Virus record (IMG/VR): IMGVR_UViG_2711768001_000003
Strand: one strand, 5' to 3'
From: a virus
Taxonomy: Duplodnaviria; Heunggongvirae; Uroviricota; Caudoviricetes
Length of the DNA stretch: 10,003 nt
Shown here: positions 7,101 to 10,003 of the stretch, one piece after another
Numbering within the stretch: the stretch's first letter is position 1
Layout: each line of letters opens with the position of its first letter
Made by a program: the position numbers

Positions 7101-10003
7101 ATTTGTGATCTGCTGTGCGTTTGGCTGGGTCAATAAAGGCACCCGGTTGCGCCGCTTCCGGGAGGTGTACACCGAAATCCCCCGTAAGAACGGCAAATCA
7201 GCAATCTCTGCCGGTGTTGCCCTGTATTGTTTTGCCTGTGATAACGAGTTTGGCGCGGAAGTGTATTCCGGTGCCACGACAGAGAAACAGGCGTGGGAAG
7301 TCTTTCGCCCGGCGCGACTGATGTGTAAACGCACACCCATGCTGACGGAAGCGTTCGGGATTGAGGTTAACGCCTCAAACATGAACCGTCCGGAGGATGG
7401 CGCGCGGTTTGAACCGCTGATCGGCAACCCAGGTGATGGTTCATCACCCCACTGTGCCGTGGTTGATGAATATCACGAGCATGCCACCGATGCGCTTTAT
7501 ACCACAATGCTTACCGGGATGGGGGCGCGACGTCAGCCACTGATGTGGGCCATCACCACCGCCGGGTACAACATTGAGGGGCCGTGCTACGACAAGCGGC
7601 GGGAAGTCATCGAGATGCTCAACGGCTCGGTGCCTAACGATGAACTGTTCGGGATCATCTATACCGTTGATGAAGGTGACGACTGGACCGGCCCGCAGGT
7701 GCTGGAAAAAGCCAATCCAAATATTGGCGTGTCGGTTTATCGCGAATTTTTGTTAAGTCAGCAGCAGCGTGCGAAAAATAACGCCCGTCTGGCAAACGTC
7801 TTTAAAACAAAACACCTCAATATCTGGGTGTCGGCGCGTTCGGCGTATTTCAACTTGGTGAGCTGGCAGAGCTGCGAGGATAAATCACTGACCCTTGAGC
7901 AGTTCGAGGGGCAGCCGTGCATTCTGGCCTTTGACCTGGCGCGTAAGCTGGATATGAACAGCATGGCGCGACTTTATACCCGCGAGATTGACGGTAAAAC
8001 GCATTACTACAGTGTGGCCCCGCGTTTCTGGGTACCGTATGACACGGTGTACAGCGTCGAGAAAAATGAAGATCGACGGACAGCCGAACGCTTTCAGAAA
8101 TGGGTGGAAATGGGCGTTCTGACCGTTACCGATGGTGCGGAGGTGGATTATCGCTACATCCTCGAGGAGGCCAAAGCGGCGAACAAAATCAGCCCGGTCA
8201 GTGAGTCACCCATCGACCCCTTCGGGGCGACCGGGTTGTCACATGACCTTGCTGATGAAGACCTGAATCCCGTCACTATCGTCCAGAACTTCACCAATAT
8301 GTCCGATCCGATGAAAGAGCTGGAAGCAGCGATTGAATCGGGACGTTTTCATCATGACGGCAATCCCATCATGACCTGGTGTATCGGCAACGTGGTCGGC
8401 AAAAACATGCCGGGTAACGATGATGTGGTGAAACCCGTCAAAGAGCAGGCGGAAAACAAAATCGATGGTGCAGTTGCGCTGATTATGGCGGTTGGCAGAG
8501 CCATGCTGTACGAGAAAGAAGACACGCTGTCTGACCACATTGAGTCCTACGGGATCCGCTCGCTTTAACTGAGGTAATTATGATCATGCTGATTCTCGCG
8601 CCTCTGGTGGGCGTGCTGGGTGCGCTTTTGCTGGCGTATGGTGCCTGGCTGATTTATCCCCCGGCGGGTTTTGTTGTTGCCGGGGCGCTGTGCCTGTTCT
8701 GGTCGTGGCTGGTGGCGCGATATCTCGACCGTACACGGCAGTCTGTCGGCGGAGGTAAATAGTGTTCTTTTCGGGATTATTTCAACGAAAAAGCGATGTG
8801 CCGGTGACCACGCCAGCAGAACTGCTGATGCTATCGGGCTGTCATACGACACCTATACCGGAAAGCGGATCAGTAGCCAGCGGGCCATGCGCCTGACGGC
8901 GGTCTATTCTTGCGTCAGGGTGCTGGCAGAGTCTGTTGGTATGCTGCCCTGCAGTCTCTACAAAATCAGCGGTACCCTGAAAACACGGGCGGTGGATGAA
9001 CGACTGCATAAGTTGGTTTCGGCAAAACCTAATGGCTACATGACACCGCAGGAATTCTGGGAGCTGGTTATTGTCTGCCTGTGTCTACGGGGGAATTTTT
9101 ACGCCTACAAGGTAAAGGCACTGGGAGAAGTGGTGGAGCTTCTTCCGATAGATCCGGGCTGTGTGGAACCGAAGCTGAACAGCCAGTGGCAGCCGGTTTA
9201 TCAGGTGACGTTTCCGGATGGTTCCGTGGATGTGTTGACCCAGAATGAAATCTGGCATGTGCGCACCCTGACGCTGGATGGACTTGTCGGGCTGAATCCC
9301 ATTGCGTATGCGCGTGAGGCCATTTCACTGGCAGCGGCAACCGAGGAGCACGGTGCCAGGTTGTTTAGTAATGGTGCGGTGACATCCGGTGTGTTGCGTA
9401 CGGAACAAAAGCTCACGCCGGATGCTTACGAGCGTCTGAAGAAAGATTTTGAGGAGTGTCACACGGGGCTTGGCAATGCTCACCGCCCGATGATTCTGGA
9501 AATGGGGCTGGACTGGAAGTCGATGGCGCTGAACGCCGAGGACAGTCAGTTCCTGGAAACCCGCAAGTTTCAGCTGGAAGAAATCTGTCGTCTGTTCCGG
9601 GTGCCGTTGCACATGGTGCAGAACACCGATCGCGCCACCTTCAACAATATCGAAGAGCTGGGGCTGGGATTTATCAACTATTCACTGGTGCCGTATCTGA
9701 CCCGCATCGAACAGCGGATCAACACCGGACTGGTACGAAAAAGTAAGCAGGGCGTTTATTACGCCAAATTTAACGCCGGGGCGTTACTGCGCGGGGATAT
9801 GAAGTCCCGTTTTGAAGCCTACGCCACCGGGATCAACTGGGGAATTTACTCTTCCAATGACTGCCGCGACCTGGAAGATATGAATCCGCGTCCCGGTGGT
9901 GTAATGCCGATCAGTTAAGGATCAGTTGACCGATCCAGTGGCTGTGTAAGAATCCGGAAACGCTCACTTGTTTCCGGATTTTTTTATGCACATTGGACAG
10001 GCT

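Follow-up and report, generated by a model that had tools for sequence, protein, structure and literature searches.

Gene content of the locus

The window, meaning the whole stretch of 10,003 nucleotides that was analysed (IMG/VR record IMGVR_UViG_2711768001_000003), is a prophage remnant bounded by insertion sequences (IS). Its genes begin with those for DnaB (33–1565), RusA (1819–2190), Q (2159–2566) and an ORF6N protein (2849–3610), and continue past four tRNAs (Met(cat), Arg(tct), Thr(tgt) and Gly(tcc); 3800–4110) to holin (4656–4871), lysozyme (4871–5368), Rz (5353–5829), an HNH endonuclease (5872–6222), TerS (6335–6838) and TerL, the terminase large subunit (6835–8568). Between the terminase large subunit and portal genes, the ORF list places a small, YmfR-like membrane ORF of 60 codons (8580–8762, plus strand). 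Its equivalents are annotated as ‘membrane protein’ in phiP27 and ST64B and as ‘ymfR: protein YmfR’ in E. coli genomes, and a Pfam search of the ORF itself returned no match. The portal gene follows, and the window ends inside an IS4 element.

The tRNA cluster, 3′ of the Q antiterminator, has the ORF6N-domain gene on one side and the lysis cassette on the other. At this position, tRNAs and toxin genes are found in Stx-type lambdoid phages; no toxin gene is visible near the cluster, where part of the region consists of N. The run of 526 N at 4244–4769 is an assembly gap or a masked stretch, and five overlapping long ORFs at 4062–4883 were rejected as an artefact of it. Shigella sonnei reference loci have 661 real bases in its place (7275–7935 in locus L017), comprising sequence upstream of the holin together with the holin 5′ part. 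From 4770 to 10003, the only substitutions between the window and six sibling loci (L008, L009 and L016–L019) are at 5249 (T vs G) and 5276 (T vs C), both in the lysozyme gene, and two of the six also differ by one gap. The HNH gene directly precedes TerS and TerL, an arrangement typical of HK97-like cos-packaging modules.

Two reading frames at the portal start

A Shine-Dalgarno sequence, GGAGG (8751–8755), can be read 6 nt before a GTG codon (8762–8764), as had been described in the sequence-only reading that preceded this analysis. The GTG shares one base with the TAG stop codon of the small membrane ORF (8760–8762), and this TAGTG overlap of stop and start implies translational coupling. 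Read from the GTG, the frame encodes VFFSGLFQRKSDVPVTTPAELLML... for 44 codons and then terminates at TGA 8894–8896, which corrects the earlier placement of this stop at 8891–8893. The long ORF, by comparison, occupies the −1 frame relative to that of the GTG, extending over 415 codons from TTG 8671 to 9918 and overlapping the small membrane ORF by 92 nt. The sequence upstream of 8671 (ccccggcgggtt) contains no good Shine-Dalgarno sequence. This long ORF, out of frame with the GTG and lacking a ribosome binding site (RBS), was thus present as previously reported. Three TTG codons occur in its frame, at 8671, 8674 and 8677, and they are not real starts.

The position of the portal start could be judged from close relatives. 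A megablast search against phage records returned 19 that cover at least 80% of 8400–10003 at 87–93% identity, including phiP27, SfIV, SfII, SfI and ST64B. The annotated portal coding sequences (CDS) of phiP27, SfIV and the E. coli A36 prophage start at the equivalent GTG, which overlaps the small membrane gene's stop codon; in ST64B, the annotated portal start lies 3 nt further upstream. Counted from the GTG, the portals of phiP27, SfIV, ST64B and E. coli A36 all comprise 413 codons in one frame. Because the relatives' annotated portal CDS begin at the equivalent GTG, the RBS-coupled GTG is the true, conserved portal start, and on the basis of the sequence and of these annotations the segment 8751–8764 (plus strand), with its GGAGG and its GTG overlapping the upstream stop, is assigned as the ancestral portal translation start. 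The motif GGAGGTAAATAGTG is invariant in all four aligned sequences (the window, phiP27, SfIV and ST64B).

A one-base deletion and the resulting frame switch

Searches of the window by tblastn with four intact portals divided the portal homology between the two frames. Residues 1–21 align in frame +2 at 8762–8824, with 20 of the 21 identical to phiP27 (E = 5e-8), which supports the earlier proposal that the GTG frame encodes a portal-like N-terminus. Residues 22–380 align in frame +1 at 8824–9900 and are 94% identical to the portals of phiP27 and E. coli A36. No portal resemblance was found by tblastn in the frame +1 translation 5′ of 8824 (SVLFGIISTKKRCAGDHASRT), nor in the frame +2 translation 3′ of 8824. 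It had been suggested that both frames look portal-like throughout 8762–8893; this holds for the GTG frame over 8762–8824 only and for the long-ORF frame from 8824 only, and not for the overlap as a whole. The ORF now read from the true start (8762–8896, plus strand) consists, according to the ORF list and tblastn, of 21 authentic portal codons (8762–8824), 23 out-of-frame codons and TGA 8894–8896.

The nucleotide alignment of window positions 8740–8960 with phiP27, SfIV and ST64B has a mean column identity of 95% and exactly one gap column, at 8823/8824, indicating that the portal resemblance is far beyond chance. At this site the sequence is GAGCTGGCGGA(T/G)GCT in the relatives and GAACT-GCTGATGCT in the window. 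Both the gap column and the allele typing described below identify a 1-nt deletion at 8823–8824 (plus strand), where one G of the ancestral CTG|GCN (Leu21|Ala22) is missing. As a result, G8824 is shared by two codons: it completes Leu21 when the GTG frame is read and opens Ala22 when the long-ORF frame is read. The sequence-only reading had suspected a single-base indel and had proposed aligning portals across 8560–9000 in search of a change of frame; the switch lies exactly at the deletion, and the colinear single-frame alignment that would speak against an indel is absent. Putting one G back yields an open ORF of 380 codons that is gap-free and colinear with five relatives, and the native junction peptide across Leu21–Ala22 is …TTPAELADAIGLSY….

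The body of the portal pseudogene, delimited by tblastn and Pfam, occupies 8824–9901 (plus strand) and comprises codons 22–380, the first base of codon 381 and an HK97-type Phage_portal domain. The match of the long-ORF translation to PF04860 (Phage_portal) extends over profile positions 2–321 of 321 (E = 3.3e-107, 358.8 bits). Window-specific substitutions in codons 1–380 number 4 nonsynonymous vs 15 synonymous. Relaxed selection or long neutral decay was considered and rejected, as these counts give no signature of it; they imply that most of the divergence arose under purifying selection and that inactivation is recent. The 4:15 ratio fits recent inactivation, and alone is no proof of function loss.

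Truncation by IS4 and the borders of the remnant

The portal 3′ end is also broken, a lesion to which the sequence-only reading made no reference. Homology to the relatives stops at 9901 and codons 381–413 are gone. IS4 has inserted directly behind portal nucleotide 9901, and the remainder of the window (9902–10003, plus strand) is its left end (TAATGCCGATCAGTTAAG...), 100% identical to the IS4 in Lambda_4B5. It provides the long ORF with its tail, VMPIS, and its stop codon, TAA 9916–9918. Only the first 102 bp of the element fall within the window, so its full extent was taken from sibling locus L007 (6068–7493) and from Lambda_4B5; delimited by its terminal inverted repeats, it measures 1426 bp in both. 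In L007 these repeats are imperfect (TAATGCC...GGCATTA). The transposase encoded in sibling loci has 442 residues, with PF13006 (Nterm_IS4) and PF01609 (DDE_Tnp_1) domains.

The L007 sequence past the right end of IS4 (CAGCCCTTGAG...) contains neither a repeated portal target nor the portal 3′ end, whereas Lambda_4B5 has a target-site duplication. The lack of such a duplication indicates an IS4-associated deletion or rearrangement, not a simple insertion. Two arrangements were found 3′ of IS4: either the element is intact and followed by raiA-pheL-pheA-tyrA-aroF, or an IS3-family element cuts into it and bamE-recN-nadK-grpE comes next. Judging from loci such as L007 and L016–L019, most S. sonnei assemblies have the IS4 cut by the IS3-family element and others have it intact. 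That the flanks differ between strains points to deletion or inversion mediated by IS elements. The left end of the remnant has a further IS3-family element, immediately 5′ of the DnaB-like gene.

Of the head-morphogenesis module, TerS and TerL are present upstream of the portal and the downstream part is missing. In the relatives, a protease or head gene overlaps the portal 3′ end; in the sibling loci, no protease, capsid or tail genes are adjacent and only chromosomal genes lie beyond the IS. The single uninterrupted frame from conserved start to conserved C-terminus that characterises the family (approximately 413 codons in close relatives) is absent here. Given the frame switch at 8824 and the replacement of codons 381–413 by IS4, the locus is a pseudogene of the HK97-type portal family and not a functional member of it.

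The deleted allele across assemblies

Three proteins, namely the TerL and the YmfR-like protein of the window and the portal fragment of 343 residues called from ATG 8887, were used in exact-protein look-ups, through which 35 loci from 26 assemblies were fetched. The deleted allele (CCAGCAGAACTGCTGATGCTATCGGG) is present in all 35 loci, that is, in 26 different assemblies, and in each of them it occurs together with its two neighbouring substitutions (GAACTGCTGATG). The same IS4 junction was found wherever the contig of a fetched locus extends far enough. The fetched loci include CP000038.1, the genome of Shigella sonnei Ss046 (PMC5447701), to which window positions 8560–9900 are identical base for base, deletion and IS4 junction included. 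The sequence is therefore already known, since public S. sonnei genomes contain the same locus. In the assembly collection, 4305 indexed blocks contain the TerL sequence.

Among complete E. coli genomes, 1394 records match 8560–9000, none at more than 96% identity. All 40 of the E. coli matches listed span one base more than the query, indicating that they carry the intact allele. In the allele typing, S. sonnei-type loci were all deleted, and phage and E. coli relatives were all intact. A degenerate-pattern scan of species-representative genomes for both alleles found one contig, with the intact allele, labelled as a Bacillota MAG. The exact-protein look-up found no identical YmfR-like protein beside an intact portal, and every context shown was the same IS4-truncated remnant.

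Several records encountered along the way deserve mention in their own right. Contig L015 (JAEWTL010000102.1, 5.6 kb, ‘MAG: Bacillota bacterium’) carries an intact portal allele resembling those of SfIV and ST64B and is probably mis-binned enterobacterial phage DNA. A similar case is a 1.8-kb record of ‘Enterococcus phage Efm 3-10’, which matches window positions 8400–8891 at 95.7%. In sibling S. sonnei loci L025, L027, L028, L033 and L037, the gene for the terminase large subunit is in two pieces as well, of 90 + 498 or 194 + 341 residues, reflecting either further remnant decay or long-read indel errors.

The distribution of the deletion bears directly on the choice, previously left undecided, between a sequencing error and a genuine pseudogene. 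Single-base indels are the commonest assembly error, and the record of the window is itself imperfect, with 526 N at 4244–4769. If the missing G were such an error, the portal 5′ end would be intact in the real genome. However, the identical deletion in all 35 loci from 26 assemblies, Ss046 included, and always with the same two neighbouring substitutions, effectively rules this out. The sequence context is a GG dinucleotide and not a long homopolymer, and the portal is broken independently by IS4 in any case. An assembly error is therefore scarcely credible, and of the two earlier options it is the pseudogene that stands.

Interpretation of the portal locus

We consider it very probable that the portal gene at this locus is a genuine pseudogene, and that the IS-bounded remnant around it derives from a phiP27/SfIV/ST64B-like prophage (with an HK97-type head module) of a Shigella sonnei-type chromosome. 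The portal of the ancestral phage would have been translated from GTG 8762 by way of GGAGG 8751–8755, coupled to termination of the YmfR-like ORF, as 413 codons in one frame. Loss of a G from CTGG at 8823/8824 has left the rest of the portal in the −1 frame, such that ribosomes starting at GTG 8762 make at most a 44-residue peptide of 21 native and 23 out-of-frame residues, ending at TGA 8894–8896. The second lesion, IS4 after 9901, has removed codons 381–413 and parted the gene from its former downstream sequence. The ORF from TTG 8671 is an accidental upstream extension of the portal-body frame. Judging from the sequence, a functional portal is presumably not made. Gene callers have placed the start either at TTG 8674 (414 residues, in the original Ss046 annotation, L009) or at ATG 8887 (343 residues). 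Neither call is a real gene start, although a truncated product could arise from the internal ATG 8887.

Such a product raises the question of whether the fragment has a role of its own. If the 343-residue portion from ATG 8887 to the IS4-encoded stop (9918) were expressed by reinitiation, it might be kept in S. sonnei for a benefit to the host, for example by interfering with the capsid assembly of superinfecting HK97-type phages. ATG 8887 lies 7 nt upstream of TGA 8894–8896, making termination-reinitiation conceivable; the fragment keeps the whole Pfam Phage_portal domain, and 1695 blocks of the assembly collection list exactly this 343-residue protein. However, there is no Shine-Dalgarno sequence before this ATG. 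S. sonnei is of recent clonal origin, which explains the conservation of the fragment without selection, and the splitting of the neighbouring terminase gene in some assemblies fits a general decay of the remnant. We therefore regard a retained function for the fragment as highly improbable.

The two frames might instead be joined during expression, by a programmed −1 ribosomal frameshift or by transcriptional slippage, giving a near-full-length portal. The geometry suits this proposal: a −1 shift out of the GTG frame leads into the downstream frame, and both frames are open over 8762–8896. The sequence of the overlap argues strongly against it: the GTG frame contains no X XXY YYZ slippery heptamer within 8762–8896, no similar run occurs in any frame, the longest homopolymer is five A's, and the point at which homology switches (GAA CTG C) is not slippery. 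The lack of a −1 slippery heptamer makes programmed frameshifting very unlikely. All relatives, including the cultured phages phiP27, SfIV and ST64B, encode the portal in a single frame, and hence no frameshift signal is conserved among them. A joined product would still be without residues 381–413 and would have no adjacent head genes to serve, leaving little to recommend this explanation.

The sequence-only reading had also offered a portal that truly starts at a non-canonical upstream TTG (8671 or 8674), with the resemblance in the GTG frame being coincidental; despite a long ORF that is open from 8671 and an original Ss046 annotation that calls its product from TTG 8674, this is the least plausible explanation of all, given that residues 1–21 match the relatives' true N-terminus in the GTG frame (20 of 21 identical), that the 8671–8823 translation in the long-ORF frame is similar to no portal, that no Shine-Dalgarno sequence precedes 8671, and that the stretch lies inside a conserved ymfR-like gene while the relatives are annotated from the GTG. 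With no portal homology and no Shine-Dalgarno sequence of its own, 8671–8823 (plus strand) is a chance open extension of the portal-body frame 5′ of the deletion, located where the ymfR-like gene and the genuine 5′ end of the portal lie.

The reading of the locus as a portal pseudogene has practical consequences for annotation. One pseudogene feature, frameshifted at 8823/8824 and truncated by IS4 at 9901/9902, should take the place of both the ORF of 415 or 414 codons (from TTG 8671 or TTG 8674) and the call of 343 codons from ATG 8887. The fixed 1-nt deletion and the IS4 junction could together serve as a simple lineage marker. More broadly, the locus is a further case of the prophage decay by IS elements and point mutation that is typical of Shigella genomes; this is ordinary prophage gene decay and implies no new biology.

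Comparison with known prophages

The closest named counterparts of the window's portal are the HK97-type portals of phiP27 (P27p38, NP_543090.1), SfIV (V416_gp03), ST64B (sb4) and E. coli A36 (WP_240745495.1). All share with the window the gene order TerS, TerL, small YmfR-like membrane ORF and portal, as well as the coupled GTG start with its GGAGG and TAGTG. Nucleotide identity to these relatives is 87–93%, and protein identity over residues 22–380 is approximately 94% to phiP27 and E. coli A36. Unlike any of them, the window has one G less at codon 21/22, causing the frameshift, and IS4 in place of codons 381–413. The prohead protease and capsid genes that lie 3′ of the portal in the relatives are absent from the window. 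The S. sonnei Ss046 locus differs from the window outside the portal region, at the window's 526-N run and at substitutions 5249 and 5276.

A defective counterpart is found in E. coli K-12, whose cryptic prophage e14 carries ymfN, ymfR and a portal pseudogene, beeE. The record of ST64B notes that its own TerL is similar to YmfN. Defective as well, e14 presumably belongs to the module family of the remnant described here, and its packaging and portal region is decayed, although it differs in its lesions and in its host.
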